Part shown: piece after piece, positions 11,199 through 57,822 of the stretch
How positions within the stretch are numbered: the stretch's first letter is position 1
How the letters are laid out: every line of letters starts with the position of its first letter
Source: Marsupella aquatica
Taxonomy: Eukaryota > Plantae > Marchantiophyta
NCBI GenBank assembly: GCA_973895155.1
Contig: OZ316893.1
Coordinates: 27,786,210 to 27,850,209 of the forward strand
Direction of reading: 5' to 3'
Length of the DNA: 64,000 bases
Notes under the pieces: generated by a model
The model's input: the letters and a program-made list of their open reading frames with translations, nothing else
Databases searched by the model: none
Told to the model about the DNA's origin: nothing
Position numbers and translations under genes: made by a program

Positions 11199-11446
11199 CT
11201 ACGCACATCACAACCAAAAAACCTCTTGATGTACATTTCACCAGGTACAACAAAAACAGACTTCAGACCATTCATTCAAGACAAATTAACAATCAGTTTT
11301 AAGGATTGATTGCATGCATTCACATTAAGAACTTAAGTGAAGGGCCACACCAAAATTATACTACTCCAAAATGAGGCCAGAGGACATGTATATAATGATA
11401 AGTGTGAAGTACACACAAGGTACAAGAGGATGTATGACATGGCTCC

Positions 11447-18900: not shown

Positions 18901-20580
18901 GCATGCTTGGTTGCTGCATCGGCAAGTCTTCCTTCCTTGGCCTAAACACCTGCTCAATCGTAGGGCTAACAGGTGGTTGAGGCTTCTCTGCTACCGGCCT
19001 TGGTGCTGGAGCTTCCTCGGGTGCCCTTACCTGCAGGGGAAGTACTGGGGCAAAGGTCTGACCTCTCGCATACCGGCACAACAGCGGCATGTGATAGCCA
19101 AGCCGCGACACGCTCCCCAGGCCGATTACCTGCTGCTCCTCCTTTAAGATCTTCTTCAATTGGTTGAGGAGGTACCCGTTGTAGTCCCGGCTTGGGTCTG
19201 GCCTCTCTGCCAGATAGACTTGTGCCTTGCCGATCTCTGCCCTCGGCAAGTTACAATGCATGGTCACCCGCAAGAAGTCGATCATCTCTCCTATGTGCGG
19301 GTTGGTGCAGGTGTTCCGGAAGAAGCCATTCTTCGTTGATGGCCCGGGGAACGACCGGAACTCCTTGTCAGGCAAGGTCTTCCTGGTATCAACTTTGGTC
19401 TTATTGCCTATCGGCAAGCCAAACACTTCGGCAATCACCTTGGGAGTAAGATAGAAATCCTTCCCATATATCCTCGTGGAATTGGTCTCGGGTTCCCATG
19501 ACCCCACGAATTCTAATAGGTCTGAATCCGGCACCTCCGGCTTCAGCCATGGTAATCTTACAAAGGCCTCTAAGCCGGATCCGGCCATGAAGCCTTGGTA
19601 CTTCTTGGTCTGCATGGCCGTAAAGCATGCATCCTCCTCCCGTGCAAAATGTAGTTGCACCTCCTCTGGTAGGGTTGCCGCCCAGCCTTTCCAGGTGTCA
19701 TCCCTGGTTGGAATGGCATTGATGGGATCGTCCTCCTCCTCTTCGGCTTCTCCCTGCCTCCTGCTCTGCTGCTCAGCTGGCTTCTTTGGTGCCGCCAACC
19801 TCGTTCTTTTTGTCGGGGTGGCTTCATCGTTGACGGCTCCCTTCCTCTTCATTTTGGCTCCTGTGGATGTCTCTCCTAGCACGGTTGCCTTTGTCCACCC
19901 CTCCGTGCTACCCTTCAACTCCCAGTGTATGTTGTTGTAGTGTTTGATGGCTTCTCGGATGCCGACGACTCTATCTTCGCAAAACAAAAGATCGTCGAGC
20001 TGATTGGAAGTAGGAGTCCACAAGAACTCGGCCTTGATGAGTTCGCCTCCTAAGAAAGCCGTCTTCTGCAGCTCCCACAATCGAGTGAGCTCCTGCCATT
20101 CTCGAGCTGCCCTTTCTGATTCTTCATCCTCGTAAGTCTTGATGTATTCAGTTGCCCGTTCGAATAGCATCCCCAGAAATGTGCCGCTTGATTGACGTTG
20201 CTCATACCCTCCTTAGGTCGATCGTCAGTATCTACTCTCTCCCCGAGTGCTTGCCTAAGCAGCTGACAGTAGTTGGCCTCCCGTAGTCATCTGCCTAGTT
20301 CGTGCTCGCAAATGAGCCACCATTCCCTGCAAGCGCTCCTTACCCCTCTCCTCTTTCGGTTCTTCCTCCCGTTGATCCTTCCTAGCCGCCGACGCTTAGT
20401 GCGCCCTAACCCTAATCTTGTTTTCACGCCCAGCGTCCTTACCTCCGGCCTCGGCCCGGGTTCCATAGTCGCCCCTAATTGTTTATATTTTCCTTGTTTT
20501 GTCCCTATACTAAGGTGTTTCTAGGGTACACTTCCCTTTTCCCCTTAAACTAGCCCAGTGATTCCTGACTAGGCATCACA
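15954..20580 (-). mobile_element. Solo LTR (4627 bp) of the gypsy family at 20779-28030
   Basis: TG...CA ends with an 8-bp imperfect IR (TGTGATGC / TGTGGTGC); 5-bp TSD GGGGA (15949-15953, 20581-20585). Its 5' end TGTGATGCCTAG matches the sequence starting right after the PPT at 24393. Confidence 0.88.
17006..20466 (-). pseudogene. LTR-encoded ~1150-aa protein (PMD/plant-transposon-domain-like plus long coiled coil), copy A
   Basis: ORFs 18536..20170, 17957..18391 and 17006..17908 join across nonsense codons that are sense codons (CGA, CAG) in copy B. ATG (MEPGPRPEV) lies ~115 bp inside the LTR. GLEAF..LLEFVGSWEPET..LTPKVIAEVFGLPIG motif. Confidence 0.8.
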
Positions 20581-20778
20581 GGGGATGAGGATGAGGATGA
20601 GGAGGGAGACCAAGAGGAGGAGGAGGCCCCGGTCCCCCACCCCCGCCCCCCCAAGAGCATGCAAGGGCAAGGAGAAGGCCAAGGGGAAGAAGTCAAGGAG
20701 GGGTAGGAACCAGCTTGCCGATGCCGAACGAAACTACTCCACCACAGAAAGAGAATTGGGGTAAGAAGGAGTTCACCT

Positions 20779-23700
20779 AGCCAAAGTAATAGAGGATTGG
20801 GGTAAGAAGGAGTTCACCTTTGGGGCCCCATCTATCACGTTATCCTGGGACACCAAGGATGACCGCAGGAAAAACATCAGGTAGATAGATGGGTACGACA
20901 GTGGACTGGAATCCGCCGATGAAGTACGTTGGCTAGAATGCCTCACTGACCTAACCGAAGAAAGTGTGTTTGGACCGGAAGAGCCCTCCAGCGGACTATG
21001 GCATGAACCTATGGAGAGTAACCTGGAGGAAGGTGAAGAAGAGACCAAGGATTGCTTTGCCATAGAGTCAACATTTTTAGCTTCAATTCCGGAGGAGACA
21101 CAAGAGGCGGATCGGCTAGATGAAACGGCTCGGTGGGGAGCTACACCAGAGACAATGGATTTTCCTCGGGCGTTGTGGCAAAACCGACAGGATCCACAAC
21201 GCCGTCTATCATCGGCAACAAATTAAATACCAAGGGATCGGCTTACAAGCCGATCACAAGGGCAGAACAAATTGAGGCCCTGCTAGAAGCCGGAAGAGCA
21301 CGACAGCCTGACCCTCAGGAAGCAAGAATAGATAAGATGCACGGGAAGAAACCAGAGCCGAGTCAAGAAGGGGAGCTGAGAACCAATTCAAAACCAAGCA
21401 GAACGGTAAGGGAACAGTCTATTAATAACCAGGGAGAACCTAAGTCAACCAACTCGGCTAGTACTGCCAAGATTCCAGTCTATGGAGGTATGAGACTAGA
21501 GAGGCTGGAAGCCGAGTTGGACCCAAATTTGAAGAAGCAGATTAATATGATCCAAGCACGGCAATACCGAAAGCTAGACTTAGGAGAAGGAAGGGAACTG
21601 AACTTGGGGCGGGACCTAGCACCTGAGCTTGAGAAAGAGATCAGTGAATTACTAATTGAATTTCAGGATGTGTTCGCATGGAGTCACCAAGATCTGAAGG
21701 GAGTAGACCCAAAACTAGGAGAACATCGAATCGATCTCATGTTAGGGGCCAAATCATTTCAACAATCGATTTGAAGGATGAACCCTAAGTATTCTCTGAT
21801 GGTCAAGGCTGAAATCGATAAACTAGTGGAAGCCGGATTCATCACTCCATTCCTGCATTTTGACTAGGTGTCTCCAATTATGATAGTTCCCAAGAAAGCT
21901 GGACCCGATGGTAAACCAAAGATCCGGGTTTGTCAGGATTACAGGAAGTTGAATGAGGCTACGTTAAAAGACCATTTTCCCTTACCCTTTACTGATATGG
22001 TACTAGACATGGTAGCCAATCATGAGCTATACTCATTCATGGATGGATACTCTGGTTATAACCAAATCAGGATTAGGCAGGAGGACCAAATCAAGACAGC
22101 CTTCATCACAGAATGGGGGATCTGTGTCTTCAATCGTATGCCGTTTGGACTCTGTAACGCACCAGCTATGTTCCAACGATTAATGGTGAACATTTTTCAT
22201 GACTACTTGAGAAAATTCATGGAAATCTTCATTGATGACTTTGCAGTAGTTGGGAAGGCATCGAAACATGCTAAATACCTCAGGAAGACCTTCATGAGAT
22301 GCAGAGAGGTAGGCCTCAAGTTACACCCAGATAAATGTTTCTTTGCCGTAGCAGAGGGTGTGCTACTAGGTCACAAGGTATCAAAAAAGGGCATTGAGAT
22401 TGATAAGGGTAAGCTAGCAGTGTGGCTAGATATCATGCAACCTAAGAACATAAAGGATGTGAGATCCTTCTTGGGTTGCATTGGTTATTATCGCCGGTTC
22501 ATCAAGGATTTTGCCAAGCTAGCTTTACCATTAACCAACATGCTCAAGGCAGGTGCAAACTTTGAACCTACACCAAAACGAGTGACAGCGGTAGTGGAAT
22601 TGAAGCAGATGTTAGTAGAGGCCCCAGTCATGATAGCACCAGACTGGAACAAGGATTTTCATGTCTTTGTAGATGTCTCAGGCTTTTGTATCGGCTCAGT
22701 ACTAAGTCAGTTAGATGAGAAAGGAAGGGACCATCCTATATACTTTGCAAGCCACCAGCTTGCCGATGCCGAACGAAACTACTCCACCACAGAAAGAGAA
22801 GCATTAGGAGTCATTTATTCATGTAAAAAGTTTAGGCATTATCTGCTAGGGTACAAGGTAATCTTTCATACTGATCATGAAAGTTTAAAATACCTAGTAA
22901 ATAAGCCGGAACTTACAGGCAGGGTAGCAAGATGGATTTTGCTATTACAAGAGTTTGACTACGAGTTAAAAATCAAGCGAGGAAAGCTACACGCCAATGC
23001 CGACTTCTTTTCAAGGATCACAGGTGAACCTACCACGGATTGCATCGACGATCGATTTCCCGACGAGGAGCTATTTGTTGTGGAAATAGCTGATACATGG
23101 TACCCTAAGATTTTACAATTTCTCAGCACTTCTAGATTACAGCCCGGACTAAGCCGAGAGCAAGCCGCAGTCTTTTTGCGGAAGGTCAGACAGTATCAGT
23201 GCATTAAGGGCGTGCTACACAGGCATGGAATCAGCAGCACGATTCAAAGGTGTTTGGAGGAGGGAGAGGTAAAACGAGTCTTACGAGCTATGCATGGGGA
23301 GGAGGCCGGGGGATATTTCGCTCCAGTAACCACTTCTAAAAAGATATTAAATGCCGGTTACTGGTGGCCCACCTTGCACAAAGATGTCTATAAGTTTATC
23401 AAACAATGTGATCCTTGTCAACGAGCAGGAGGACCAAGGGCGTCCACAAGACATCCACTGCATCCTATTCTACCTCTGGCACCATTTGAGAAGTGGGGTA
23501 TTGATTACATCGGACCCCTGAAACCATTGACCCATCCTCGAAGAAACAAGTACATAATCTTGGCCACGGATTATGCAACTAAGTGGGTAGAGGCCAGGCT
23601 GACAACGAAGGATGATGCAATTACTACGGCTTGATTCATGTATGAGCAGATCTTCACCAAGTATGGCGCACCCTTAGAATTAGTTAGTGATAGAGGAACC

Positions 23701-24404
23701 CATTTTCTGAATGATATAATTAGTCGTTTAAATGAGCAGTATTTAGTTAGACCTAGGCCTACTACTCCCTACCACCCAAAGGCAAACGGGTTGACAGAAC
23801 GAGCCAATGGAATTATAGGAAAAATATTAAACAAAACTGTAGCCTAGAACAAACTCGATTGGGATGATGAATTGTTTGCTGCTGTTTTTGCTTACAATTT
23901 AGCCTATCCACTACCGGTCATACACCTTTTTTCTTAACCTTTGGACAGGAAGCTCTGGTACCCATGCAACTTGAGATCCCTACATTTCAAGTTACAATTG
24001 AGGAGAGAACCTCAGAGGAGGAAAGCCTAAAGGATCGAGAATATAGATTAGAGGCCTTAGAAGAGGCAAGAATGATTTCAGCCGAGAGAGTAGAATATAG
24101 ACAGAATACCATGAAGCAGCGGTATGATAAAAGGTTGAAACTAGTTAGTATTCACACAGGAGATCTTGTATTACTTTATGACAGTAGGTATAGTAGGTTT
24201 CTGGGGAAACTTTATACTTGCTGGTTAGGACCTTTCAGGGTATCAATGAAGTTCTCTAATAGCTCTGTGCAATTGGCCAACATAACTAGAGAGGTGTACC
24301 CAGTTCGCATCCATTACGACCGCCTCAAGAAATACTATATGGACGAAGATGAAGTTGTTTGCAAGGACGCTTCACAAATAAGTGGGGAGCTATGTGATGC
24401 CTAG
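20779..24404 (+). pseudogene. pol: gypsy pol (RT, RNase H, integrase) with several stops/frameshifts
   Basis: SPIMIVPKK, QDYRKLN, DGYSGYNQI, MPFGLCNAP, FIDDF (RT); DVSG, EREAL, TDH (RNase H); CDPCQ, IDYIGP, SDRG, ERAN, WLGPF (integrase). Confidence 0.95.
24376..24389 (+). other. Polypurine tract of the gypsy element
   Basis: AAATAAGTGGGGAG, 3 nt before the TG of the 3' LTR. Confidence 0.75.
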
Positions 24405-27400
24405 CCAAGAATCACTAGGCCGGTTTACATGGTAAAAGCAGGAGTGTACCCTGGAAACACCTTAATATAGTAACAAGACAAGGAAAATATAAACAATTAA
24501 GGGTGACTATGGAACCCGGGCCGAGGCCGGAAGTAAGGACGTTAGGGGAGAGAACACGATTAGGGTTAGGGCGTGTTAAGCGTCGGCGGCTAGGGGTGAC
24601 CAACGGGAGGGAAGACAAGAGGAGGAGAGGGGTAAGGACTGCTCGCAAGGAATGGGGGCTCATTTGCAAGCACGAACTGGGCAGACGACTACGGGAGGCC
24701 AAATACTGTCAGTTGCTTAGGCAAGCACTCTGGGTGGGAACAGATACCAACGATCGAGTTAAGGAGGGTATGAGCAACGTCAATCAAGCGACACATTTTT
24801 GGGGATGCCTGTTCGAATGGGCAACTGAGTACATTGGGACTTACGAGGACGAAGAATCAGAGAGAGCAGCTCGAGAACGGCAGGAGCTTGCTCGACTGTG
24901 GGAGCTGCAGAAGTCTGCCTTCTTAGGAGGAGAACTCATCAAGGCCGAGTTCTTGTGGACTCCTACTGCCAATCAGCTTGATGACCTTCTGTTTTGCAAA
25001 GACAGAATCGTTGGCATTCGGGAAGCCATCAACCGTTGCAACGACGCGCACTGGGAGTTGAAGGGTAGCACGGAAGGGTGGACAAAGGCAACTGTGCTAG
25101 GAGAAACATCCACGGCAGCCGAGATGAAGAGGAAAGGAAACAACAACAAAGAGGCCACCCCGGCAAAAAGAACGAGGTCGGCAGCACCAAGAAAACCAGC
25201 AGAGCAGAAGAACAGGAGGCAGGGAGAAGCCGAAGAGGAGGAGGTCGATCCCATCAATGCCATTCCAACAAATGATGACACCTGGAAAGGCTGGGCGGCA
25301 ACCCTACCAGAGGAAGTGCAATTACATTTTGCATGGGAGGAGGATGCATGCTTTACGGCCATGCAGACCAAGAAGTACCAGGGCTTCATGGCCGGATCCG
25401 GCTTGGAAGCCTTCGTAAGATTACCATGGCTGAAGCCGGAGGTGCCGGACTCAGACTTATTAGAATTTGTGGGATCATGGGAACCCGAGACCAATTCCAC
25501 GAGGGTGTATGGGAAGGATTTCTATCTCACTCCCAGGGTGATTGCCGAGGTGTTTGGCTTGCCGATGGGTAATAAGACCAAGGTTGATACCAGGAAGACC
25601 TTACCTGACAAGGAGTTTCGGTCGTTCCCAGGACCATCAACAAAGAATGGCTTCTTCCGGAACACCTACACCAACCCGCACAATCGGAGAGATGATCAAT
25701 TTCTTGCGGGTGACCATGCATTGTAACTTGCCGAGGGCAGAGATCGGCAAGGCTCAGGTCTACCTGGCAGAAAGGCCAGACCCAAGCCGGGATTACAACG
25801 GGTACCTCCTCAACCAACTGAAGAAGATCTTGAAGGAGGAACAGCAGGTGATCGGCGTGGGAAGCGTGTCCCGGCTTGGCTATCACATGCCGCTGTTGTG
25901 CCGGTATGCCAGAAGTCAAATCTTTGCCCCAGTACTTCCCCTATCGGCAAGGGCACCGGAGGAGGTTTCGGAGCAGAGGCCGGCAACAGAAGAGCCCAAC
26001 CAGCATGCCAGTCCTACGATCCAGCAGGTGTTTCGGCCAAGGAAAGAAGACTTGCCGATGCAGCAATCAAGCATGCAGAATCTGCTGAAAATGCTGGAAA
26101 AGGAGAGAACGGCACCAGCAACGGCAACGGCACCAGTACAGGACACTGCCTCAGAGGCCGGCCTAAGCCGACTCAGGAGGGAAAACCCCTTTACCGGAGC
26201 CAAGGAGAGAAGGAGGCCGGAACACAAGTCGAGAGTGCGAATGTATGTGGGAGCCTCAAGCCCCGAATCGGAGGCAGAGCAGCCTAAGGCTCCTTCCCGT
26301 GGAGAGCAGAGGGAGAGGACAGCCTGGAACCCAGAGGAGGAACAAGAGCCCGTGATCTGTGAGGCCATTTTCACGGCAGGACCAGGGGAACAGAGGGGGA
26401 AGTCGGGAGTCCAAGCATTGGAGGAGGCGGTGGAGGACTACAGCAACGATAACTCCGGCTATGGGTCGGATCATCATGTTCCAGGAGTAAGGACCTGTGG
26501 CCGATTTATCCCCATGCTTCCAAGAGTAGTTCGAGGGGACCTCACTCAGCAGAGTAGCCCCGAGTCTCCCCCACCAGAGGTTGCTCCCCCGAGCTTTGAC
26601 GGCTTAAAGTAGACGGCACAAGAATTTCAGGAGCGACTTAGGGAGGAAGAGAAAGCAACCCTGGCTAGGGAGAAAAATTTACCAGGAGGAGATTGGCCGG
26701 AGGACATCAGGCAGCTTGCCGAGAAAAGAAGCAACCCTCTTGCCACCGTAGAAGAAATCCGCAAGGCGGCTTGGGAACAGAGGCCGAGGTGGTTGATGCC
26801 GATGACTTCTACTTACTCCACCTATGCTAAAGATAGAGCCATGAAGTACGGGGAGATGTGTGAGGACCTGGCGCTCAGCATCTTTAATTTGGGGAGGAGT
26901 TGGAGCAGGGACCTTTCTTCCAGAGGGAGAGGTGGGAGAAGCACCGATTAGAAGAAGCGGTGGCTTTGGAGAGAATCAAGAAGGACGAGGTCATCCGGGG
27001 GCTTAGGGAGAAGGAAGCCGAGGTGGAAGTCCAGCAGGCGGCCAAGAAAGCCCAAGATGAGCTGCTGATTAAGCGGCATGAGCTAAACATCATGCAAGGA
27101 CAATTGGATGCCGCTCAGTCTGGCAGTCAAATTATCAAGGATAAACTGACTCAGACCCAAGGAGAGTTGGCTAGCGCGGTCAAGGACAGGGAAAAGTGGA
27201 AGCAAGAGCTGAGGGATGCAGAGGAGGCCCACTTAACCGCCAACAACCGGGCCATGGTGGAGACTCAAAGAAGAGAGAGGGCGTTGAAAGGAGAGCTCGA
27301 AGATATCCGCGGAGCCCTTGAGCAGAAGGAAGCCGAGTTAGGGAAATCCTATCAAGGGATTATTGCGCTGCAGCAGGAGCTTGCGTCCCTGACGGCCAGC

Positions 27401-28030
27401 TTCAAGGATGACCTGCGTGAAAAGGACGACCAGCTCGACCAGACTTATGCCAAGATGAATAAGATGGAGTCTGTGGTCGTAGCAGAGCTCGACAAGGAGC
27501 TAAGAGCAACCCAGGAGGAGAGGGCTACCTTTAAGAAGGAATTGGAGGAAGCCCAGAAGGAATTGGGGGAAGCCCAAAAGGAGCTGAAGGAGGCGCGCAA
27601 GGACCTGGACGAGACCCAGGAGGAGTTGGAGGAAATCATGAGGAAGATGGAGAACTTACAGCGGCGGGTCGACAACCAAACAGAGCGGCTGAAGAAACAA
27701 GCCGTAGTATTTAAATGCTTGGCTTCATCAGGTCCAACTCCAATTGGGGCAACCCAGTTACCAGGGGTAGTATTGGCCGAAGGACAAGTCGAGACACTCA
27801 CCCCGGTACCGGAGGTAAGTGGCAAGGGAAAGGAACCGGCTGTCGAAATAAGGAAGAAGAAGAAGTGGAAACCTTCTGGGCTGGGTCTGGGAGTTATACG
27901 GCTTCTCAAGCCGTTGTGACCGAGAAGATTAACCCGGCACCAACCTCCGGCATCGACACGGCGATGGATCCACCAGTCCTAGGAAGTGGGTATGGCAAGG
28001 CCGGGACAACCAGTAATGAAGTCGAGGCTT
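24393..28030 (+). repeat. 3' LTR (truncated at ~3.6 kb), inverted homolog of 15954-20580
   Basis: Starts TGTGATGCCTAG; collinear with the reverse complement of ~17080-20580; similarity ends at ~28030. Confidence 0.88.
24509..28030 (+). pseudogene. LTR-encoded ~1150-aa protein, copy B
   Basis: ORFs 24503..25726, 25542..26612 and 26900..27919 are homologous to copy A; its lesions are at different positions from those in copy A. Confidence 0.8.
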
Positions 28031-28803: not shown

Positions 28804-31800
28804 TGTGTCCTTCACTTCCCTCCTTCTAAGCTTGACAACAAATAGTCTGTTAATTTTCATGGGCAATTTAGCTTATAGCCACATTTCCTATAATCAAATG
28901 TGTTACCTAGTAGGTGACAAGAGAATATGCCCAGGAGAGGGTGTTAGTGGCGTGATAATAGATCACTATATACCTTGTGCTTCTTTTAGCTAGTGATATT
29001 TGTCTCCATGGTGGACAACCACCACACCACCAGGCTTGACTGCTCTTGAGAGTTCTGTTAGACAAGCAAAAATAGTGGTGTCTTAGCAACAGATATTCTC
29101 AAGTATGTATGGCTAAAAAATCACTCGATTCATTTAAATTGGAATTTTCTTTGATCTTTGTACATTTGGGCACTAAAATACAATTATTATTTTTAGGCAC
29201 AAGAGTGGTACATTTGAGTAGTGAAAGCTGTAAATAGGGCACCAATGTTCAATAAAAATTTAGGGGAGAAAAAAGTTTTTATTGGGGAAAAGGAATATCA
29301 TTTTGGTTTTAAAGAAAAACATTTGGCCATGTGGTAAAAATGTAAAATTGGTTGGATAATCAAGCAACATTTGCCAAACTTTGCCTTTAGCTGTAGTTGG
29401 ATTTGCCAGATCTCTGAAGATTTGATGGCTGTCGTTAAGATCATGAAAAAATTAAGGCTTTTGAGAACTCTCATTTAATTATATTAATTTATTCTCACCT
29501 TTGTATTTTTACTACTTAGCTGTCCCCCTCACTGGATTTCTTATGCAAATTCATTCTAAATAAAACCTACCACAATGAATGTCCCATGTTAGGCATTTAC
29601 TCAAGGAGTTACTATTCAATCATGGCTTTTAGGCTGACCTTAGTCGGGTGCTTGGCTAAGGTTAGGTGTGTTACTACTGGTGGATTGCATGATTGAGGAC
29701 TACCAAAGGAGGCAAAAATGTCTCCACTCCTTTTAAAAGTCCTTACACTGCCAACGGCCAAGATTAGGCTGATCTAAAGCAAAAAGTACTTTAACAAATC
29801 AAATACGTATGAGGCACATTCATTACTGTGTTGAGCTCCCGAGGGAACTCCTTTCTTGTCTCGACATGTATTTTATTGTTGGACAACTGGTTTTATGGGA
29901 GAGTGTCGGTGCTATTCATTCCCTTAGGACTTTTTGAAAACAAGGAGTCAGACTCCTTTGGACTTAGGTGCGGGACAGAGTAGTGGCAGATAGAAGTACT
30001 CGGGCGCTTTTGGTGTTCAAGATTCTTGTCTTTCCACTTGCAACTCATTGAGAAAGTATTGAAGCTGAGCCTTGTGGAGCGCAAATGGGTAGCAAAGTCC
30101 TCTAGAATTGCTGCATTCACGTCTAGCTACATGGGTTGAATTGATTTGAAGAGTAGTCGTGCGGTGTGAGCCCAGATGCAAAGGCCAATCAAGCGCGAAA
30201 AGGGACATTGATGTTCAACGCAAAAAGAAAGGCCTTGGTTGAGCTACAGATTTAATTTAGGGTCTAGAGCCTTCTCTTGGCGAATGACATTCAAATCTAG
30301 ACAGGAGCGACAGGAACAAGCAAAGAAAGAGGGCCAATCAAGCTGCAAATTCGATTACGTTGTGAGCTTGTAGGTTTGTCAATGACATTTGATACCGGAA
30401 GGGAACATTGGAAAAGAGCACAGAGAGGATGGTCGAGCAGTCACTCAATCACCAGGTGCCACTTTAAATCTTGCTTTGCTTTCGTTTGGAAATAGGATCT
30501 GAAGTTGCATTGGAATCAACAGAATTGAAATAGTTTAATAAATGCAGGTTCGCTTTTGTTTTTCAAGAGAACAGAACAGATCTAGGTTGCGTTGGCCTCA
30601 GGAAGGGTAGCAGGAGAGATTAAATGCGTTCAGATTTTGTGAGGTACTCGTTATAAATTGAAATGCATGGTATGTACTAGGTGACAAGGAAGTTCAATGT
30701 CAGGCTATCAAAGTGGGACTGTCAAAGCGGGACTACTGTGATTGTTTCAAGCCTTTGATCGTGACGATGTTGAGTCACGCGTGTTAATTTGCATTGCGCT
30801 CCTTGACATGCAAGCAAAGAGTGGGAGCAGGGGCCGTGCAGAGCTTTTCCGTCCCTTCTTTATGTTACATGAGTAGGCCAAAATGGTCACAATGAATCAG
30901 GTATCTGATGCCCTAGCAAGAGAGAAGCTGGAGAAGCGAAGATTGGCGAACCGCAAATCCAAGTTGAAAAAACAAGAGCAGATAGCAAGTGGTCAGCAAG
31001 GAGGTGGTCACCAACCATCTCTCTCTGATGAAATGATTCTTGAAGCACAAAAGCAATGCGATCTCATGATGGAGAGTGCAAAGCAACAATGCCAAGATTT
31101 AGTAATTGATGGCAACCGAAGGCGAAGAGAGATATTGGCTGCTGGGCAATCAGAGGTGATATTGGCTGCTGGGCAATTAGTAATGAGGCTCATGAAGCTG
31201 CCACTGTGGTCTTGCGTACAGCCCGAGAAGAAAGTGAAATTCTTATGGAGACTGCACATTCATGCCTTGCCGAGCTTTTAGAGTCTAGGCAGGGGTCCCT
31301 AAGTGCAAGCATTCTAGAACAGGATGCCCACATTCAAATGGTAGAACAGAGCACCCAAACTGATTGCAGACAAGTGCAGGCAGCCCACATTGGTCCACTT
31401 AATGAAGGTGAGCAAGATCACAACTCTGGCTGTGATCGCCAAGTGCAGCAAGCTGCCATGCTTGAGAAGAGAAGGAAGGATGCAGGCAAGAAGAGAATTG
31501 AATATGAAAGGACGAAGCGCTCTGCTGCTGATGACTGTGAAACTCCCAATCGAAAGCGTAGGTGTATTACAGCTGTCTCATCAGATATAGTTAGGTACAT
31601 TCTGGAGAAGACTGCTACATTCAATCTAGGTGCAAGGAGGGCAGTACTATCTGGGGTCTGGTTACACAAGTATTTGAAGAAGTACCAGCCGACACGACTA
31701 GGTTCACCTAAAGTAGATGGGGCTGTAGCTGCTGCATTGATTGATGTGAGAAAAACCTTGAGCATAGTGAAGCCAGGGAAGTGCAAAGACCACCTCGCTG

Positions 31801-32309
31801 CAAAGTACCAAGTTCTGTCAGCACTTGTAGGAAAGACATGTGTAGATAAAAGGCAGCAGACCTCTCTAGCGAAAGCTTTGGGTATACAACGGCAAAATCT
31901 TCATAGAGCATCTAAGATGAGGATACAGATTGATGCAGACAGTAAAAAAATGTATCCTATGGGGGAAAGAAAGGTACGTCGAGACAAGATTTCTGATGAA
32001 GTTCGAATCCAGGTGGAACACTTTTGGGAAACTCACACTAGGATTTCTCCATGTAAGAATAATGAAGCCAGATTGCGACTAGGATGGAAAATGGTTCAAA
32101 CACATCAAGTGCACTGGCTGGAGGATACACAGGTGAGAAACTCTATGTGATTGATGTAACTGTTATGTCCATTTTGCCAGATTTGATTGAACTCTTATCT
32201 CCACTCCTTGATGAGTAATTTTCCTTGTTAGTCAACCATTGTGATCGCTACCCAGTGTGTTGTAAAGGTAAGATTTGAATAAATTTTGTGGCCTAAAGAC
32301 TGTTAGTAG

Positions 32310-32835
32310 TCCCTAGTCAAGGACTATTAATAACTGACGAAGGACTATGGTCAGGACTGTAGTCCTTCCCCAAGGACCTTAATAGTCCTTTCTCAAGGAC
32401 TATACTCCTTTCTCAAGGACTTTACTCCTTTCCCCAGGACTGTGCTCCTTTCTAGTCCTTTCTCAAGGACTTTACTCCTTTTCCAAGGACTCTATTCCTT
32501 TTCCGAGGACTATAGTCCTTTGTTAAGGACTCTACTCCTTTTCCAAGGACCAGAGTCCTTTCTGAAGGACTCTACTCCTTTTCCAAGGACTCTAGTCTTT
32601 TCGTAAGGACTCTAGTCCTTTTCCAAGGACTCTACTCCTTTTCCGAGGACTATAGTCCTTTCTGAAGGACTCTACTCCTTTTCCAAGGACTCTACTCCTT
32701 TTCCGAGGACTATAGTCCTTTCTGAAGGACTCTACTCCTTTTCCGAGGGACTATAGTCCTTTCTCAAGGACTATACTCCTTTTTCGAGGACTATACTCCT
32801 TTTTCAAGGACTTTAGTCCTCTTCGATCCGAGGAC
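32310..32835. repeat. ~21-bp minisatellite of palindromic AAGGAC-N5-(G/C)TCCTT units in transposase intron 1
   Basis: About 20 tandem units such as AAGGACTCTAGTCCTTTTCC. Confidence 0.92.
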
Positions 32836-33138
32836 TCCTGTTCCAAGTTTTTAAGTCGAGTGCATTGAGTACTTGAGTCCTTCCAAATTGATTCTACTCC
32901 TTCCCTAAGAACTTTAGTCCTTCACCTCTCTTGGTAGAGTCTTCCAATAAGAGCTTGGACCCTTATTGAAGGACTGTAGTTGCAGGCAGAACTGAAGTCC
33001 TTCAGTAAGTAGTAGTACCCACATACATGGGTTTTTGTGGCTGCACATTTGAGGGTATCCGTTCCTAACAGTCTTTCTAACAAAAATAATGTATGTCTTG
33101 TATATGTATAGTTCCAATTTTTTTCAGCATTTTGTGAC

Positions 33139-33425
33139 CTCGGGGGGTTAACTAAGTGTATATTTTGGGGTACCACGTGCGATCCTAGCCTAATATAAAT
33201 AGACCTATTTTATAAAGAAAATATTCCAAGAATATTCTCTATTTTAAATATTAATAACCTATTTTACTTTATAAAGGGTATATATTAAAGAATATTCTAT
33301 AAACATGAGTTTATAATACCTTCTTTTGCCTCCTACGCATATAAAATTTTTAGTTAAAATCTGTCAAAAATACATATTTTGGATCGCACGTGGTTCCTAA
33401 GATTTTTGATAATCAACCCCCCGAG
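33139..33425. mobile_element. MITE, 287 bp, 8-bp TSD, inserted in Sola2 transposase exon 2
   Basis: Ends CTCGGGGGGTT / AACCCCCCGAG; inner IR ACCACGTGCGATCC / GGATCGCACGTGGT; perfect TSD TTTGTGAC (33131-33138 / 33426-33433). Removal restores FQFFSAFCD|WCTREQ. Confidence 0.93.
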
Positions 33426-36393
33426 TTTGTGACTGGTGCACAAGGGAGCAGAATGGGGTGTCTATAGGGATGCGGTCATTTATATACTTCAAGCCATATT
33501 ACGTTCGTAAGATGAAAGACAAAAATGTTTGTTGCTGCAAACAACATGTGGAGATGGACTTACTCAAAGAGGCAGTTAACAAATTCAGGCGGCACCAGCA
33601 CAGTAAGGACTGTCCTTGTGAATGTGATACCTGTAGACCCTTGGGTGTTGTACCCATCTCTTCTTGTATGGCATCTTCAAAGTCCATAACCTCAGTTTGT
33701 GGCTGGATAGAGGAAGCTCTTTGTCATAGACTGCCTGAGACAGAGTGGCACCAAAAAGCCTGTATTATGGGTGAATGTGAAGAATGTGGAGTAGAGAAGT
33801 TGGATTGGTGCACTCAAGAGCTGGACCCTGCACATAATCAAATGATCGAATGGCAGACATTTGAATATCGTGACCTGGATGACACTACCAAATAGAAGAG
33901 AGAAAAAAAGAAAGGGGCTGAAGAGAGTGCAACAAAGAAGTCTAGGCGATTGAGGATTATTTATAAGCAAACTCCCATGGTTGATTTTAAGAGAGCAGTA
34001 ATGGATACCATGAAGACATTTATTGTGCATAACTTTCGAGCCCATTGGCAATCACAACAGTTTAGACAATGTCTGAAAATATTTCCAAGAGGGACAATTG
34101 TTTCTTCAATAGATTTCTCCGAAAATTACACTTTTTTGCCTCAGAATGAGATTCAGAGTCAACATTGGGACAATAAGCAAGTGACATTGTTAATCCATGT
34201 TACCTATAGACACAGGGAAGATGCCAATTCACTTGAAGCTGCAGTTGGTAGGCCTGTGAAAGCAGCACAGAATGCTGATAAAACTCGTGATATTATAGCA
34301 GATTACCATTTCTACATTAGTGATGATAATTGTCATGACACTCTTTTTGTGCAACACTGCATGGATGCGCACTGGGAGTGGATGGCTAATCAGGGAATTC
34401 ATGTTGATCAACACTGGGTTTGGTCTGATGGGGCGGCATCTCAGTTCAAGGCCTGCAGACCATTTTACTACGTTAGTAGGTACTACTCCCGGTTTGGTGC
34501 ACGGATGAAATGGTTCTTCCATGCCTCTGGCCATGGGAAGGGTGTTGCTGTAAGTATCTACACCCAATTCTATGCATGCCTTAGTTGGTTTCTAATGAGT
34601 GATGTATCTACTGGAATTGGATGACCAAACTTGCAGTCTAAGTAAGAAACTTTCTAATCTGTGTTTCTTGTATGCTTTAATAGGATGCTCTTGGCGGCCA
34701 CATTAAGACCGGGCTTGCAACTGAGCAACTAAAAGGCATGAATGGTCATCGTCTAGAGGGTGCATCAGATGTGGTGAAGTTTTGCAAGGACAAGTTTGCC
34801 CTTGGTCAATTGCAGGAGTATGGTGAAGTGCTGCTTGTTCGACGTATATTTTGGGAAATTCCTGTTGGCACTGTAAATAGAAGGAAGAAGTGGGATTGTG
34901 ATCCAATCAAGGATTATAGATCTTTGCACTGCTTTGATGGATTTAGTAAGAGTCTGTCAACACTGTTGCAAGTTCGGGAGCTCTGTTGTTTTTGTGTAGC
35001 TTGTGTTGATGAAGATCCAATGAATTGTGAGAACAAGGAATGGGTAGGCAAGTATCGCCTGGAGATGATCAAAGGGGTATTGCAAGTAGATGTCAGAGTT
35101 GATGTGGAGAACATGGGAGAGGGCGAAGGACGGCTTGACAACATCTCTCTACCAGAATGTGTCCAATTGGGAGATTTCTATGCATGCTGTGCAAGTCAAC
35201 CAAATGAAGATAATGTAGATTTCTACATTTATCAGTGTGAAGAGGTGCTCCACACAGTCACAAAGAGTTTCACTGATGGGTACAAGGTACAATTCAAGGC
35301 AGGGGACCTGGCCTTAAAGGGAAGGTGGTTCCAACTATATCCAGGATCAGAAAACAAGTTTGTCTTCAATTCTGCTTCTCCTTTCAGCTACTGCCATCCA
35401 GGGGAAGTAATTCACATTCGATTTGGTTTGACACCATGTGAGGTGCCCAAGGGAGGCAAGGGACGAGGTGCTAGATTTTACACACTAGATTCAGACACTT
35501 TAGAAGCAATTTATGAATCGCTGCAAGTGTAGCTTCTGTAAAACTAATGGATCATGTTGTACATGAAGACATACAGAAGGTCATTGTAGTAGGGTAGGCT
35601 ACTATTTAGCATTTCTGAGGCTCCTACACAGAGAGATTGTAAAAAAAATCTTAAATTTAATGTAAGGCTATCAGTTCTTTTCCACCTTTATTTCATTTGA
35701 GGATCAATAGTATGTTGTTAACATGTGTTGGTGGCAACCTGTCGGACAAATGGAACCAGTAAGCTTGTCTAGTGCATTGGAATGTTCATTTTTTGTGGAT
35801 TTGTCCAGGATGGGCCAAGGCTGTAGCAGCATGCAGAATAGCTTCTTTTATTAGAGCATTAGAGGACTAAATTAACCTGCGGCATTCACACAGCTCAAAT
35901 TTCCCCCGTACTAAGGGTAACTGTGGCTAATGATCTTGCTGATGATCAATATTCAGTTGGCACAAGTTGAGAGCAACTAAATGTGGCTTTGTAATCATTG
36001 GCGCTTCAGCTTTACATTGAGCTAGTTACCTTCTGATTTTTCAATATTACGTGACATCAAGCTAAGTTTCAGTCGTTGTCATACAAAATGATAGAACATC
36101 ACGGATTAAAATTTATGTACACAGCTCTTTGAATGAGAGGAACAAACTTCCAATCACCACTGGGGCTGACGATTGTTGTTGCATTATGCAAGACGTGAGC
36201 TCACATATTGACCAACAGACAAAGGAGAGACTGAATCGTGGAGTACACAAAGTGACAGAAGATAAGGTGCATAAAATGCTCATCCTGTTACAATCAAAAC
36301 TAGGCTTTGAAGGCCTCAATCCAAAACAAAGTATCATTGAAGACACAGTTCATTGAACCAACCATCCTCAAACCCCTTGCTTGTAGAGGCTGC

Positions 36394-36981
36394 CTACTTT
36401 TTGATGCTAAAAGATCTGAACGAATCCACTCTATCTGACCCTAGGTCAACAACAACATTCTTTAGCCTGCTAAGGCCACCTAGCGCCACAGGTGACTCGT
36501 CTACTGGATCCTTGACTTTGCTTTCTTCAAAGTACAAAGCTCGAGACAGATCAGCTTCCCTGTCACCCTTGACATACCTGATTATCCAAGTCCCAGCCAA
36601 AACCTGATCCCTAATCTGGTCTCTCCTATCAATGTTTGAATCCCTGTACTCCTGGCCCGTGATCCCCATCAATTGCTGACCATTAGCTTCATTCACTTGA
36701 AGCACAATGTCGCCAACCTGCACAGCAAAACAGTACATGTATGTTCCTTCCCCATCCCTTGTACAGGTGTGTTGAAGTCTGCTGCGAGATCGAGGACCCA
36801 ATGGTGACTCGGGGTTCTGCATTCTCAACCTGCGTTTGTACTTCCCCAAAGTGCAGGGACGACCATCACTCAAAACTCCCCCACAGCCTTCATACGTAAA
36901 GCCTCCGACACATAGACCCCATATCCTATCAATCCTGACTTCGTGAAGAGTATCATACAGGCTAAGCTTCTCCATCTGCAA
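36394..36981 (-). CDS. RPA70 C-terminal-like OB fold with Zn ribbon (Sola2 cargo)
   Basis: FTYEGC..C..K..HTC..YMYCFAVQVGD..NEANGQQLMGITGQEY resembles Rep_fac-A_C (YxAC..C.K..C..Y.....D.....a..llG.sa.e). Confidence 0.55.
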   Translation of the reverse strand: MQMEKLSLYDTLHEVRIDRIWGLCVGGFTYEGCGGVLSDGRPCTLGKYKRRLRMQNPESPLGPRSRSRLQHTCTRDGEGTYMYCFAVQVGDIVLQVNEANGQQLMGITGQEYRDSNIDRRDQIRDQVLAGTWIIRYVKGDREADLSRALYFEESKVKDPVDESPVALGGLSRLKNVVVDLGSDRVDSFRSFSIKK

Positions 36982-37069
36982 AACTGAAGCACCTCATTCT
37001 CAGAAGCAAGAATTCAAAAGTGTCCGCAAAAGTTCCAGTTACAAGAAACCAGTTACAAGAGCCCCATGG

Positions 37070-37900
37070 ACGTCAAGTCCTTCCCTGAGTACTTGCAATC
37101 ATTCCCCCGGCCAGTACTTAAAGCCCTTTCCACAAGGATTTGGAGTCATTCCACAAGGACCCAGAGTCGTTCCAGGACTTTGAGTCCTTCAAAATCCTTC
37201 GATAAGGACTCAAACTCCTTTGGAGTCCTCCCACGAGGACGCGGGGTCCTTGCCCAAGGAGCCGGAGTCCTTTCTAGTCCTTTCTCAAGGACGTTTAAGT
37301 CCTTTGAAGTCCTTGCCCAAGGATTCTAAGTCCTTTCCCAAGGACTCAGAGTCCTTCCACGAGGACTCGGAGTCTTTTCCCAGGACTCTGATCCTTCCAC
37401 GAGGACTCTGACTCCTTGCCCGAGGACTCTGAGTCCTGCCCGAAGATGACTCGTAGTCCTTTACCCAGGACTTGCAGCCCTTGCCCAAGGACTCACAGTC
37501 CTTTCCCAAGTCCTTTTCCAAGGACTCGGGGTCCTTGCCCAAGGACTAGGAGTCCTTTCCCAAGGACTCTCAGTCCTTTCCCAAGGACTCTCAGTCCTTT
37601 CCCAAGTCCTTTCACAAGGACTCGGGGTCCTTCCCAAGGACTCGCAGTCCTTTCCCAAGGACTCGGGTCCTTTCCCAAGGACTCGCAGTCCTTTTCCAAG
37701 GACTAGGAGTCCAGTCCTTGCCCGAGGACCTCCGACTCCTTGCCGCCCGAGGACTCCAAGTCCTTCAAAGTCCTTCCACAAGAACTTGGGGTCCTTCAGA
37801 GTCCTTTGACAAGGACTCTATCATTGACTCTACCAAGACCCTAAGGACTGAAGCTCTTGCCCACAAACTTCAAGTCCTCACGCTAGGACTTGAACTCCTC
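37070..37900. repeat. Second array of AAGGAC-N5-GTCCTT palindromic units inside the Sola2 element
   Basis: About 30 units such as CCAAGGACTCGGGGTCCTT. Confidence 0.92.
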
Positions 37901-38124
37901 AGGCCCTACTGTCCAAGCTAATTTCAAACAAAATAGTCACGATTCTAGTCAAAGACATAAAGGGGAACGGTTTGAGATAGAAAACCAAAGTTACCTGCTT
38001 GATTGTTTAGACTCCGTTCACAGCTTTGGCTCTTGTTTTCCGCCCTGATTTTATCTACTGCACATGAAACGATATTCTTTGTTATTCAGTTCATAGTACC
38101 CAGAAAACCCTCAGATTCCATTTG

Positions 38125-40653
38125 CTATGGGTCTCTTACAAGAAGCTGCAATCGTTTCCTGGAGTTCAAGCACTTGGGAGGAAGAACAAGGGATTCAGTT
38201 GTACTGCTGTCCGACCGTGGAGGTGTTTCTCCTGCTTCAGTTTGAACAAGGCTCAACAGTCGCCTGAATGAAACACGAGACACAGACTCAGGAGTAAAGG
38301 GCAAGGTGCCAAGCTCAAGAGGTGTCAATAGGGTACTGGTCACCTTGCTAGCTAATTCACTCTCCTGCTTCTGTTTCTTCCTCACATGCAGTTCATTGGT
38401 CAATGTGGGATCCAACGCTGGCATTTCAGGAGAGTCATCCTCATGAGTACCCTGTTCATGCACAGAAATAGTGTGGTTCACATTGCACAACCGCACAGCT
38501 TGGACTTGGGCTTCTTCCTGCACACACAAATGAAGACATAATTTACTACATGGCCCAAAACCGGAACCTTAGAAACCAAATACCAATTGAAACATGACAG
38601 TGTGCCTCTACATACCAGAGCTTGCGTGGACTGCATTTGTTGCACAAGGTGACGACGTCTGCCCAAGCAGGCACTGTTTACCCCATATGTTCCCTTCATC
38701 TCTTGAATATAGCCACCTTCACCCGATGGCAACTTGTCCTGCCCTATGTTTGGAAGACCCTAACTTCGAACCCAATCTTCCAAAAAGGGTTTCCCACATG
38801 CAAAGCAACAGGGTGCTCTTGTTTTATCCCCCAACAATGTAAATAAACAATGTGGATGATACACGTGGCCACAACTTGCTGGAACCCAGTTGAAACAATG
38901 GTACCCGTGGCAACAAATTGGACAATTACTCACAAGCACTTCCGTTCCCACTATTGTAGTTGATGTGGGAACAAAGTGAGGTTGCAACACTGGACATGGA
39001 TTGGACAAAAGAGACTCCAAAATAACCAGTTCAGACTTTTGAGCTGCTGCAGACAACTCAAGGAGCTTCAGGTCTGCTTCCAACTGTGACTCCACAACTT
39101 TTAGACGAGCTACCTTCTCTGGTACCCGTTCAAAGCGCTTGTTGTTGGTATCTATGAGCTTGTCAAATGTTGCCATCCCCTTCAGAATAGATGATTCATT
39201 GTTCTTCAAAGCCTCCATGTCCTTGTTACCATCCTCCAACTTCTCCCGTAAGGTAACAATGTAGCTATCCTGCCCCCCAGAAGAGAAAACAACACATGGC
39301 AACATTATTTTGCAGTTCATCATGCATCAATGCCTCGTCCTGCCAAACCGAATCCAACCACCCAACAAAACATACATAGCCTACAGGTATTTTGAGCAAC
39401 ACAAGGACAGGCCTATGGTCTGACAAGCAGTATACCTCCTCGTCTTGCTCTCCCTTCAGCTCCTCGAGCTCCATTTCTGTTGACAAGTCATCATGTAGGG
39501 TGTCCCTTGCCTGCATTTTGCTTCTCACCTCACCCAACTCTTCCTCTAGTTTGTTACGTTGCTCTTGAATGACAGAGATGACTGCTGGATGGTCCCGTTT
39601 TGACCCCTCCAAGCTTTCCACAGTCTTCTGAACCGCACTGATGCGCTGACGAGTCTCTTTTAGACTACATTCAATCGTGACGATTTGCCCATCCAGAATG
39701 GACAGCAAAAGACTTCTTGGCAATGCAGGGAGAACAAGAGTCTCGGGCTTGGTAGGGAGAAGCTTTATCTGGGGGACACAAAGGGCCGCAGCTGCCAATG
39801 GTTTGGGATGTGGGCTCCCCTTGCTGCAAGAATCCACTATCCTTGGGTGAGCTTTGTCCCTCGCCGTTTGATTCTCGGTAGAAATCCGTGGGACGGGCTG
39901 TGGGAGATGCGTTGAAGGGTCATCCACAAGCCACTTCAAATTTTCTTCATCAAATTCTGCAGGCACTGGTGGTGAATATAGACGTAGCCTCCTTATGCAA
40001 GGAGGCCCGTCTGGCTTACCCTTACCATCTCGCTCCCATTGGGAAATTTTCCCCTTCAGCTTGGACACTGCATACACACACCAGTCCACCTTTCGCCTTT
40101 GGATCCTCTCTGCATAGGCCCCTTTGATGAAAGTGAATGTCAGAAAGCCATTCACTGGTGAGTCGTAACCATCCGCAACTTGGGATAGCTGCAAAACCTC
40201 CTCAATTGGAAGGCCGACACAAAGACTCAGCTTATACCCGTTACTGTCTTTCTCTCCAAACACCTCGGCCAATTGTTCCTTGGAAATGTCTTTGATCTTA
40301 TGAGGATTAATACCTTCATTTGGAAGACCAAATGTGGTGTGGAAATACTCTGCGTCCTTAACGTAATCTTCAGGATCCCATGACTCTACAGGCACCTCCA
40401 CCTTAGCCTTTCCTTTTAACACTTTGGTACTCTCAGATAGGGGAGCAGGAGAGTCAGTCGTAGCATGGTCCGTAGCTAGGGAAGCAGAAACTTTGGGTTT
40501 GCTAGTAGTTCGTGCTCTGCCGCTACGAGGGATAACAGGGTGTGGGACAACTATCTCCTTTTCTCCTAACTGAATGGTAGAAGTTGGAGGAGCTTCTGGC
40601 TTATTAGTTGACGCATCCATGACTGCATTCGAACAAAGTGTAGAAGGTATCAC
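38125..40653 (-). CDS. Multi-exon Sola2 cargo gene: low-complexity N-terminus, globular domain, coiled coil, RING-H2 finger
   Basis: ORF 39265..40653 (coiled coil LKETRQRISAV..ELEELK) and ORF 38760..39323 with C-x2-C-x11-C-x-H-x2-H-x2-C-x12-C-x2-C (CPIC..SCGHVYHPHC..CFAC). Donor GAG|GTATAC ~39435 and acceptor CAG|GAT ~39270. Downstream exons uncertain. Confidence 0.7.
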
Positions 40654-42028
40654 CGAGGAAAGCTAGTGTTCAATGGTGACAACTTCAACTACCATCGGGC
40701 GCACACCTACAATAATTACCTCAGGGCTGTTGCGGATTGAAAATGGATGTTCAATCACCAATGACTTGCAGGTAAAGTTTCCTCCACTGGCTCAATTCAG
40801 GCCAACGGCGTGCGCCCTGCATCCAATTTATACAAATGACGAGTCACTTTAAAAGGTTTGATTACTGAGAAGGCTTGTACTCAATCTGTGATTCATTGGT
40901 ATAGTTGTTTGAAAACTACAAACAGGGCGCTATGACCTATCGGAAGTCAGCTAAGGGAACCAAAACAAAGCTAGCCATTGTTTCAAGAGTTTCATGATTG
41001 CGCAAACCAAACCTAAGGCGACCAGTGGAAGCTTAAGACACAATCTGAAGAATAGATTTCTGATATAGCTGTTCAATCAAACTTAATCCAGAATTTGCAA
41101 ATGATGTTTAACATACCAAGCTATTGTACAGTTTGACTGTCGAAAAAGCTCCCCTCAATTTGAACTTCCTTCACTACCTTGCTTGTGTTGCCAACAAAGC
41201 TCCTTTCGAACCTCCTCCACTGACTGCCGATGTCTAGCTTCAAGCTATTTCACAATGAAAGCTCCCCTGTATTCTCAATGGTTTGAACGAGAGTCCTCTA
41301 AATCAATTGCGATCAATGTGACTCAATGCGTCCATGGAAGGTAGACCTCAGATTATCTTGCTAACCATCGTCGCTCTCCCTTCCTCACCCGATGTTGAAA
41401 CGTTCACTACTTTCTGATTTCGGCAACTATGGTTTTCAAGCTCGGTTTTCACCATCAAAAAGTTCGAGAAATTGTGGAATGCTGATAAAACTTGCCGCAT
41501 CCGCAAGTCCTTACCACTATTGTCATTGTCGCGGCTAGGATGGAAGGACTCGGAGTCCTTGTTTTCAAATAGTCCTTGACGACGCGGGACAATAGGACTT
41601 AATTATCGTCCACTTTCCAAAGTCAATTCATGCACGCTACTTCCCCGAGGACATTTATTAAACACTTGTCGCATGTAAGTACTTTATGACTTAAATTAGA
41701 GTTCTAGGCTACTAAATCTTAAAATGGTTATAATGGAATCATTTCTCAATCATTTAATTCTAGCCTTTGATCTGTGAATTTTCAATCTTGGCCATTGAGG
41801 GATATGTTGCACATTTAATGCAACATGGAAAGGACTTGAGTCCTTGTCTAGGAGAAAAAAGGACAAAAATGGTAGTCCTCAATCATGCAATCCACCTACT
41901 ATATTTACTAGCATGGCTTTGTTAGTTAGTGGAACTTATGGTCATTGTTACCACTAAATAGCCTTACCAAAGGCGACTTCTCGTACTTATATAGGGCATA
42001 TCCTATACATGGGTCCTTGATATGGAGG

Positions 42029-46616: not shown

Positions 46617-47723
46617 GAGGTATATGCTTAATCGACCCCCTCTGGACTGTTTCTTACTTAATCCTTGGGGCTTTCACTTCCACAAAAATGGTACATCATG
46701 TGCGACAAAGGATAGGGTCATTTTATTGGTTCTAAGGGAAGACCTAAGAATTTTTGCAAAAGAACAATAGGGTCTTTTAAATTCACTTTTGAGACTTATA
46801 AGAACATTGGGGTCTTTTTAATAAAAAATATTCCAACTTTATAGGGGTTAAAAAATAACTTATTTTTTCTTACATTTTAGGGGTCCGAGGCCTAAAAACA
46901 TCGCAGGTGATGGGAAGGTCTCCATATAGTGAGACCCCAGAGACTTAATCAATCCCCTATGTTCAGATCTGCCCCAATTGACCTCCTCTGACAATTTGTT
47001 AGAGATAGTTCTGACTTGGGAAAATCACTATATAGGGAGACTTTACCACGGTGAACTCTAATTTTCTATCATATGAGCCCGTGGTCTTGCCCCCCAGGTC
47101 TCGCATGTGGTATGCCGCAATTGTGTTGAGATAAGAGTTGGCCCACAATCCACGCGTGATAAGATCTAATGACACCAGATGCAGTTGTGGTACTTTTGTG
47201 TTTGAAGACAAAACTAGTATGGTCTTCAAACATTTAGGGGTTAGTCTCTAGCAGGGTCTCCATTTGTCTGAAGTTTAGAGGTAATAAAACTGGGCTACTC
47301 CATAACGTTCCTATATAGTTGGGTTGTTGAGAATCTTTATCGGTGCATTCCACTAGAGACAAATCTATGTTTGGATCTCCCTCACAAACAAATGCTTTGG
47401 TGGATTTCTTTGACACTGATTTGCTAAATCGGCACACTTGTGTTGATAAATTATTAAATGTTCTCCAAATGCTTCCAATCTTTATACCGCAAGACCATTA
47501 TGACAGCCAAGAATCCAAACACTTGTAAAATTCTCCAAAATCCTTGAAGTGTTTGGACCAATTCAAGTTATGTGAGGGCAATTCAATAATGAACACCAGA
47601 AACTATCAAAGGGGGTCGATTGGGTTACAAACAGACTTTGGGGGGTCGATTTGGACAGATCTGAACATAGAGGGTAGATTAAGTAGGAGACAGTCTAGAG
47701 AGGGTTGATTAAGCATATACCTC
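46617..47723. mobile_element. Non-autonomous Mutator-like element (~85-bp TIRs) with a MITE nested in its left TIR
   Basis: GAGGTATATGCTTAATC..TATGTTCAGATCTG is the inverse of 47640-47723; candidate 9-bp TSD tatcagaag / tatcactag. Confidence 0.75.
46664..46942. mobile_element. MITE, 279 bp, same family as 5497-5773
   Basis: Perfect 8-bp TSD ACTTAATC (46656-46663 / 46943-46950); removal restores the host TIR. Confidence 0.9.
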
Positions 47724-56619: not shown

Positions 56620-57822
56620 CTTAAGAACATCTTTTACTTCACAACTTACATCTTTGTCTAATGACATCCCTTTACTTATCGACCATTTTGTACTTAACAA
56701 AAAAATACTTAATAACATCTTTCGTAAAACATCATCTTTTACTTGACAACATCTTGGACATAAAGACATCTTTGGTGCAACGACATCTTTTATTTCACAA
56801 CATTTTTCACATAAGAACATTTTTTCTTCACGACACCTTTGGCATCACGACATCTTTTTTCTTAACGACATCTTTGGCAACATGACATCTTTTTTCTTAA
56901 AAAAATCTTTGACAACACAACATATTTTTACTTAACAAAATTGTTGGCAACATCACCTTTTTTCATGACAACATCTTTGGCAACACAACATATTTTTTCT
57001 TAACGACATCTTTTGTGCAACGCACGGGTATTGAGCCATCTTTCACATATTAATGACATATTGGGTGAAACGACACCTTTTTATTTATAACATCTTTTAT
57101 TTCACAATCACTTAGTTTGGCAAAATGACACCTTTTTCTTAACGCCATCTTTCACATAATGACATCTTTGGAAAAATGACTTCTTTTTTCTTAACGACAT
57201 CTTTTTACTTCATGACATCTTTCAGATAACAACATCTTGGGCGACACGACATCTTTTGTGCAATGCACTGATATTTTTCCTCAATGACGTCTTGGCCAAC
57301 ACGACATCTGTTTTCTCAATGACGTCTTGGCCGACATGACTCTTTTTTCACAATGATGTCTTGCCCGACACAACATATTTTCTCTCAATGACGTCTTGGC
57401 CGACATGACATCTTTTTTCTCAACGACTTCTTTGCCAACACAAGATCCTTTATCTCAATGATTTCTTGGCCGGTCACACGACATCTTTTTTATCAATGAG
57501 ATCTTGGCCAACACGACATCATTTTTCTCAACGACCTCTTGGCCAATACAACTTTTTTTCTCAACACCCTCTTGGTCGACACGACATCTTTTCTCTCAAC
57601 CAAATCTTGGCCGACATGACATCTTAGTCGACACGACATCTTTTGTTCTCAACGACATCTTGGCCGACACGACATATTTTGTTTATCATCATCATCTTGC
57701 CGACACGACATCTTTTGTTCTCAAAAATTTCTTGGGCGACACGACATCTTTCTTCTCAACAACCTCTTGGCCGGCATGACCTCTTTTGTTCTCAACGACA
57801 TCTTGGCCGTCACGACATCTTT
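56620..57822. repeat. ~34-bp minisatellite (CTTGGCCGACACGACATCTTTTTTCTCAACGACAT), more degenerate toward the 5' side
   Basis: About 17 good units at 57240-57820, AT-eroded units upstream. Confidence 0.88.

Follow-up and report, generated by a model that had tools for sequence, protein, structure and literature searches.

Sola elements carry a DDD transposase, make a 4-bp target site duplication (TSD), measure 2-9 kb with some exceeding 15 kb, and are present in Physcomitrella; the land-plant members named in the available parts of two reviews are Physcomitrella Sola1 and elements of Capsicum (PMC10741241, PMC9033089). The available part of the Riccia genome paper makes no mention of Sola (PMC11735767). 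Elements of 12-13 kb with a second gene are described from Dictyostelium and Polysphondylium as Sola2-Fanzor1 (PMC3627910). Here we describe a 12,218 bp element (positions 29679-41896) within a window of 64,000 nucleotides from the liverwort Marsupella aquatica (assembly GCA_973895155.1, contig OZ316893.1, positions 27,786,210 to 27,850,209; coordinates below are those of the window). A transposase on the plus strand converges with two minus-strand open reading frames (ORFs), the coiled-coil/RING-H2 ORF B and the OB-fold ORF C, an arrangement that a first-pass annotation had already recognized. On balance, we favor the view that the element is a damaged member of a young Sola2-type family that keeps two selected accessory genes, which likely serve the element.

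With Sola2 DNA transposons, as far as these sources describe them, the element shares a DDD transposase with an equal motif series, short terminal inverted repeats (TIRs) and the 4-bp TSD, but it differs in its land-plant host, its 12 kb length, its conserved convergent accessory genes and its internal palindromic arrays. The Sola2-Fanzor1 elements, in the part of the description available, also combine a Sola2 transposase and a spliced second gene within ~12-13 kb, with short TIRs and a 4-bp TSD; their cargo encodes a TnpB-like nuclease whose 3' halves are swapped, whereas here RING/coiled-coil and OB proteins are kept across families (PMC3627910). With these extra-gene elements already known, the premise of the first-pass annotation that Sola elements are usually described with only a transposase needs correction. 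Among the publications searched, we found none in which RING or OB genes are cargo of a Sola element; Repbase Reports or Bao 2009 may hold such a description.

Accessory proteins are also known from other superfamilies. The Arabidopsis Mutator-like VANDAL elements with their VANC proteins are, like this one, DNA transposons with a coiled-coil accessory protein (PDB 9lnj, 9lnk) and with tandem arrays of short motifs that occupy introns as well as intergenic and terminal regions; RING and OB domains are not described as parts of VANC in the portions of these papers available (PMC5735166, PMC13547354). The element differs from them in superfamily, and its motif, which seems to be conserved between families, also sits in the TIR. 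A further accessory domain, the plant mobile domain (PMD), is common to retrotransposons and DNA transposons, a distribution shared by the cargo N-domain described here, and is reported in the available text to resemble the DUF1985 domain of VANC in structure (bioRxiv 10.1101/2024.09.27.615353). Accessory anti-silencing genes have been proposed for fungal DNA transposons, according to the accessible part of one study (PMC12730594).

The features of the element are as follows.

29675..29678, no strand: left TSD copy, TACT, from flank comparison and single-TACT empty sites
29679..29705, plus strand: left TIR, 27 bp, beginning GGTGG, with one AGGACT motif inside, from an inverted-repeat search
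29926..29958, plus strand, partner 41544-41576: subterminal imperfect inverted repeat, 88%, carrying an AGGACT/AGTCCT-type motif
30892..32132, plus strand: predicted transposase exon 1, both frames of which match proteins P0007/P0043
32353..32824, no strand: palindromic AGGACT/AGTCCT array (20 bp) within intron 1 of the transposase, an intron with 37 motifs
33112..34549, plus strand: transposase exon 2, with a Cys/His cluster, DFSENY, QNEIQ..HW, ISDD..HD, SDGAASQFK and HGKG
33139..33425, no strand: nested insertion like a miniature inverted-repeat transposable element (MITE), 287 bp, TIR CTCGGGGGGTT, 8-bp TSD at 33131-33138 / 33426-33433
34684..35532, plus strand: transposase exon 3, with the third catalytic Asp at the beginning, 64% to P0007 over 281 aa
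36394..36975, minus strand: ORF C, 193 aa, intact, predicted zinc-ribbon OB fold of the RPA70 DBD-C type, ATG directly after a CAG splice acceptor
36976..37994, minus strand: predicted intron between the ORF B end and the ORF C ATG, with a 21-bp AGGACT/AGTCCT array; splice sites inferred from sequence
38007..38057, minus strand: predicted ORF B exon 4, a short basic tail (locus L021 has a similar one), first codon a stop in this copy
38140..38517, minus strand: predicted ORF B exon 3, low-complexity linker
38616..39269, minus strand: ORF B exon 2, encoding a coiled coil and the C3H2C3-type RING-H2, with an early stop codon (38760-38762)
39436..40620, minus strand: ORF B exon 1, from a disordered start through the conserved helical N-domain (~39964-40380) and a linker to a coiled coil
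41870..41896, minus strand: right TIR, 27 bp, from an inverted-repeat search
41897..41900, no strand: right TSD copy, TACT, from flank comparison and single-TACT empty sites

The TIRs are 100% complementary over 27 bp; they had been called perfect, correctly, at a length of 26 bp. Comparison of the element with four public sequencing runs from two studies, one of which may be the source of the window, supports its ends and the 4-bp TSD of the first-pass annotation. In all four runs the single-copy contig of the left flank stops at 29706-29707, at the start of the element, and read depth is raised from there through the right end. Other left-flank contigs (5, 2, 3 and 2 in the four runs) continue to 29678, through a single TACT, and then into right-flank-like sequence; the duplication is therefore 4 bp, and the insertion lies in a short repeat of low copy number that also exists in empty form. 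This target (29630-29678 plus 41897-41950) exists in several copies, and some empty versions bear AGGACT right after the insertion point. In further contigs the left TIR adjoins other flanking sequences, again AT-rich, which shows that there are additional insertions. Over the cargo, contigs deviate from the window at 1-8 letters in 273-624 and have ~5-25 times the flank depth; read depth does not equal copy number, and the data thus show a young multi-copy family rather than a count. The transposase of intact copies very probably cuts at the TIRs and generates the 4-bp duplications.

All three transposase exons were recovered as first annotated, and piece by piece they are 34-72% identical to liverwort proteins. 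Calypogeia fissa and Riccia sorocarpa supply the best of the named matches, ahead of Klebsormidium, Taxus and Ceratodon (41 of 306 candidates matched), which points to a likely liverwort host; one Klebsormidium nitens model (P0025) fuses leucine-rich repeats with a Sola2-like transposase and may be a model fusion. The Sola2 motif series F..L+P, CxC..H, DF.ENY, Q.E.Q..HW, SD...HD, SDG...Q.K and HGK...DG.G is present in full in exons 2-3 and in the homologs. The element end reads GGT; a 5'-GRG terminus is the rule for Sola2, one that we did not find in print. The earlier Sola2-like DDD assignment agrees with a by-eye comparison in which the Asp residues of DFSENY, SDGAASQFK and HGKG.ADALGG fall at Sola2 alignment positions (supplement S10 of PMC3627910, as available). 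The TSD of Sola2 is given there as AWWT (PMC3627910), and TACT is A/T at three of four positions, with AT-rich flanks at the other insertions; Sola termini are described in the available review text as highly variable, and 27 bp falls inside the TIR range of 11-1124 bp (PMC10741241). The transposase motifs, the TIRs and the 4-bp TSD support placement as a Sola2-type cut-and-paste transposon.

The window copy was annotated as full-length, and its ends and its 12.2-kb length hold, but it is not intact. Eleven extra bases in exon 1 near 31157-31174, missing from other contigs, shift the frame; the MITE-like insertion in exon 2 is skipped by other contigs at very high depth (joint 33130>33426); and a stop codon lies at 33893-33895. 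By its sequence the transposase is dead in these three ways, and this copy would be mobile only with help in trans. The MITE-like element itself, with its 11-bp TIR and 8-bp TSD, has hundreds of times the flank depth.

ORF B was first read as a RING ORF with its end at 38760. In other copies this codon is Trp, with 38761 differing in two of the four runs that show the place and P0042 also reading Trp through this stop, and the stop at the start of exon 4 likewise differs in other copies, with 38057 changed in all four runs. The gene begins at 40620 with a further conserved N-terminal domain that had gone unnamed, and runs through four predicted exons (~755 codons) in the order N-domain, coiled coil, RING-H2 and basic tail. 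In a diverged contig the exon 2/3 intron is replaced, and the exons still align. The RING-H2 call stands on the C3H2C3 ligand pattern, whose spacing C-x2-C-x13-C-x-H-x2-H-x2-C-x13-C-x2-C is kept in homologs, with the zf-RING_2 profile below cut-off at E 0.075; searched with the RING exon, longer proteins gave one match in 599 candidates. The Trp, Pro and linchpin Arg typical of RINGs that bind E2 are not found in this one, and we give a ubiquitin ligase function not quite an even chance; the degradation of host silencing factors suggested in the first-pass annotation is a hypothesis.

For the N-domain, fold searches returned no significant match, and hidden Markov model searches of PDB sequences returned coiled coils or noise only. 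Against DUF1985 it had no sequence match and no significant structural one, aligning weakly with VANC21, and no Pfam match to PMD was seen. The Pfam scan of ten ORFs of the element gave nothing above cut-off, and atlas searches with ORF C and the N-domain gave no usable match. By analogy with VANC we suggest, tentatively, that the N-domain may bind DNA at the arrays.

ORF C, with 61 homolog clusters, has a predicted structure (pLDDT 85) of an OB barrel with an inserted zinc ribbon, and its top matches are RPA70 DBD-C (4gop, 8rk2, 1l1o) and Teb1 OB-C (3u50), in agreement with the RPA-like call of the first-pass annotation. It differs from these in being a stand-alone single domain with 8-12% identity and Cys/His ligands, lacking DBD-A/B and residing on a TIR transposon; PF08646 did not match ORF C and reached E 0.024 in one of 24 scanned proteins (P0081). 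We predict an RPA70 DBD-C-like OB fold, and binding of single-stranded DNA is somewhat more likely than not.

The 72 homolog models comprise 8 with N-domain, RING and C, 11 with N and C, 3 with RING and C, 17 with N and RING, 32 with N only and 1 with C only; B and C are therefore a conserved tandem. That they are exons of a single gene encoding one N-coiled coil-RING-OB protein is rather unlikely, even though C shares a chain with N and/or RING in 22 of the 72 models, with order kept, and a splice from a phase-0 donor at 38139 to the acceptor ahead of the C ATG could preserve the frame. The 17 models with N and RING but no C speak against a fusion, as does ORF B of L021, which ends in a basic tail like that of predicted exon 4. 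Two ORFs are favored by a Met that lies 18 residues ahead of the conserved Trp of C in 18 of the 31 homologs listed (among the long models, whose upstream residues vary, in 11 of 14) and by the adjacent Riccia models R1sor_017370 (C alone) and R1sor_017371 (N and RING); B and C are probably tandem ORFs rather than one protein. The sole donor noted between them lies 12 bases past the predicted stop of B and would yield a bicistronic message.

The annotation of the cargo as an integral part of a multi-gene Sola lineage is borne out by its multiple copies, conserved position and linkage in other families. On one contig of Riccia the cargo gene R1sor_010677 lies at a distance of two tags from transposase R1sor_010679, with a chance of ~1% by a rough estimate (~90 cargo genes in ~27,000 tags; one transposase; elements cluster), and 66 of 68 N-domain matches are Riccia models, spread over seven contigs, with Riccia also supplying three of the four query rows. 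Because the ORF C alignment was too variable, metagenomes were scanned with the transposase. Among the best 80 of 167 loci none exceeds 48% identity and none is therefore a close relative. At least 3.5 kb lies downstream of the transposase in 22 of the 80; on the strand opposite the transposase, N and/or RING is present in ten of these, which belong to 7 of 15 families. Against an integral cargo stand the other 8 of 15 families, which show none, and the Calypogeia accessions, which gave no neighbors. At one locus (L008:3658-4917) a RING ORF lies downstream on the same strand, unlike the convergent layout elsewhere. No ORF C homolog was found in the 80 loci, and searches there for the element TIR and for TSD-flanked inverted repeats gave chance-level matches only. 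Between loci L041 and L044 the ratio of nonsynonymous to synonymous substitution rates (dN/dS) is 0.27 for N, 0.64 for the linker, 0.37 for the coiled coil and 0.11 for the transposase; at sequence level, this shows purifying selection on the cargo in a related family.

Passively carried host DNA of the Pack type, useless to the element, is accordingly very unlikely: RING and RPA-like domains are frequent in host genes and B is broken in the window copy, but position and orientation are kept in distant families, Riccia has dozens of dispersed copies, no named host gene is among the matches, and the L041/L044 dN/dS values had already weakened this explanation. Still less credible is a nested element with its own ends, such as a Helitron. 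RPA70-like genes are typical of plant Helitrons; here, though, no depth step marks the cargo borders, unlike those of the nested MITE, no inverted-repeat pair bounds the cargo among the 25 of 44 listed, the same motif arrays serve both element halves, and transposase-cargo linkage recurs in other families.

The arrays are non-coding, with 97 of 98 motifs outside the exon spans and 46 in 36976-38006. They may be transposase binding sites, like subterminal enhancers, with the cargo acting in transposition or post-excision gap repair instead of anti-silencing, an explanation to which we allow an appreciable but minor share of probability. The motif occurs in the TIR and subterminal repeat and recurs in distant families, and ORF C has a predicted fold of the ssDNA-binding type. 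On the other hand, introns of the two transcription units, 2.5-5 kb into the element, hold most of the motifs, and the N-domain is also found in a Gypsy-type element of the window, which has no cut-and-paste step. That element has two ~3.4 kb inverted arms, 72-90% alike, around a Gypsy-type pol (17111-28002, pol at 21124-24404), and each arm holds a long ORF with a domain related to the Sola2 cargo N-domain, an odd layout for a long terminal repeat element.

In the role that we favor for the cargo, the N-domain/coiled-coil/RING protein would attach to the motif arrays of its own element and protect that element from silencing, and the RPA-like protein would bind single-stranded DNA in excision and repair. 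The weak link to VANC weighs against the anti-silencing part. The most detailed form of this view is a bryophyte Sola2 anti-silencing kit, in which a remote VANC/PMD-like domain traded with Gypsy reads the arrays and brings the RING to element chromatin, and in liverworts the same spliced bicistronic transcript supplies an RPA-like ssDNA-binding protein from an ATG 12 bases after the first ORF's stop; all of this together is improbable.

Elsewhere in the window, CACTA-like ORFs (DUF4218, DUF4216) lie beside a SET-domain ORF (E 8.6e-7) at 7886-12082, possibly a DNA transposon with a chromatin-related passenger. A 1.1-kb element with 47-bp inverted repeats (89%) and a second inner pair occupies 46617-47723; a large 35-bp tandem array at 56715-57825 has a motif unrelated to the Sola2 arrays; and at 58989-60576 a Copia-like reverse transcriptase/RNase H fragment, identified by eye, converges with an ORF bearing an RNase H1 N-terminal domain (E 5.4e-19).

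To our knowledge, plant transposon-encoded counter-defence is well shown only for VANC of Arabidopsis Mutator-like elements, and a selected accessory module in another superfamily and in early land plants would be a testable second case. Besides a RING, the module has a putative DNA-binding domain, and a candidate target motif can be seen in the sequence; liverwort model plants are easily transformed. The module also accounts, as transposon cargo, for dozens of genes annotated in liverworts as hypothetical and 'RING-type'. Were only its role in transposition or repair true, the element would still outline a multi-gene Sola2 lineage not described before, with an RPA-like protein as helper.
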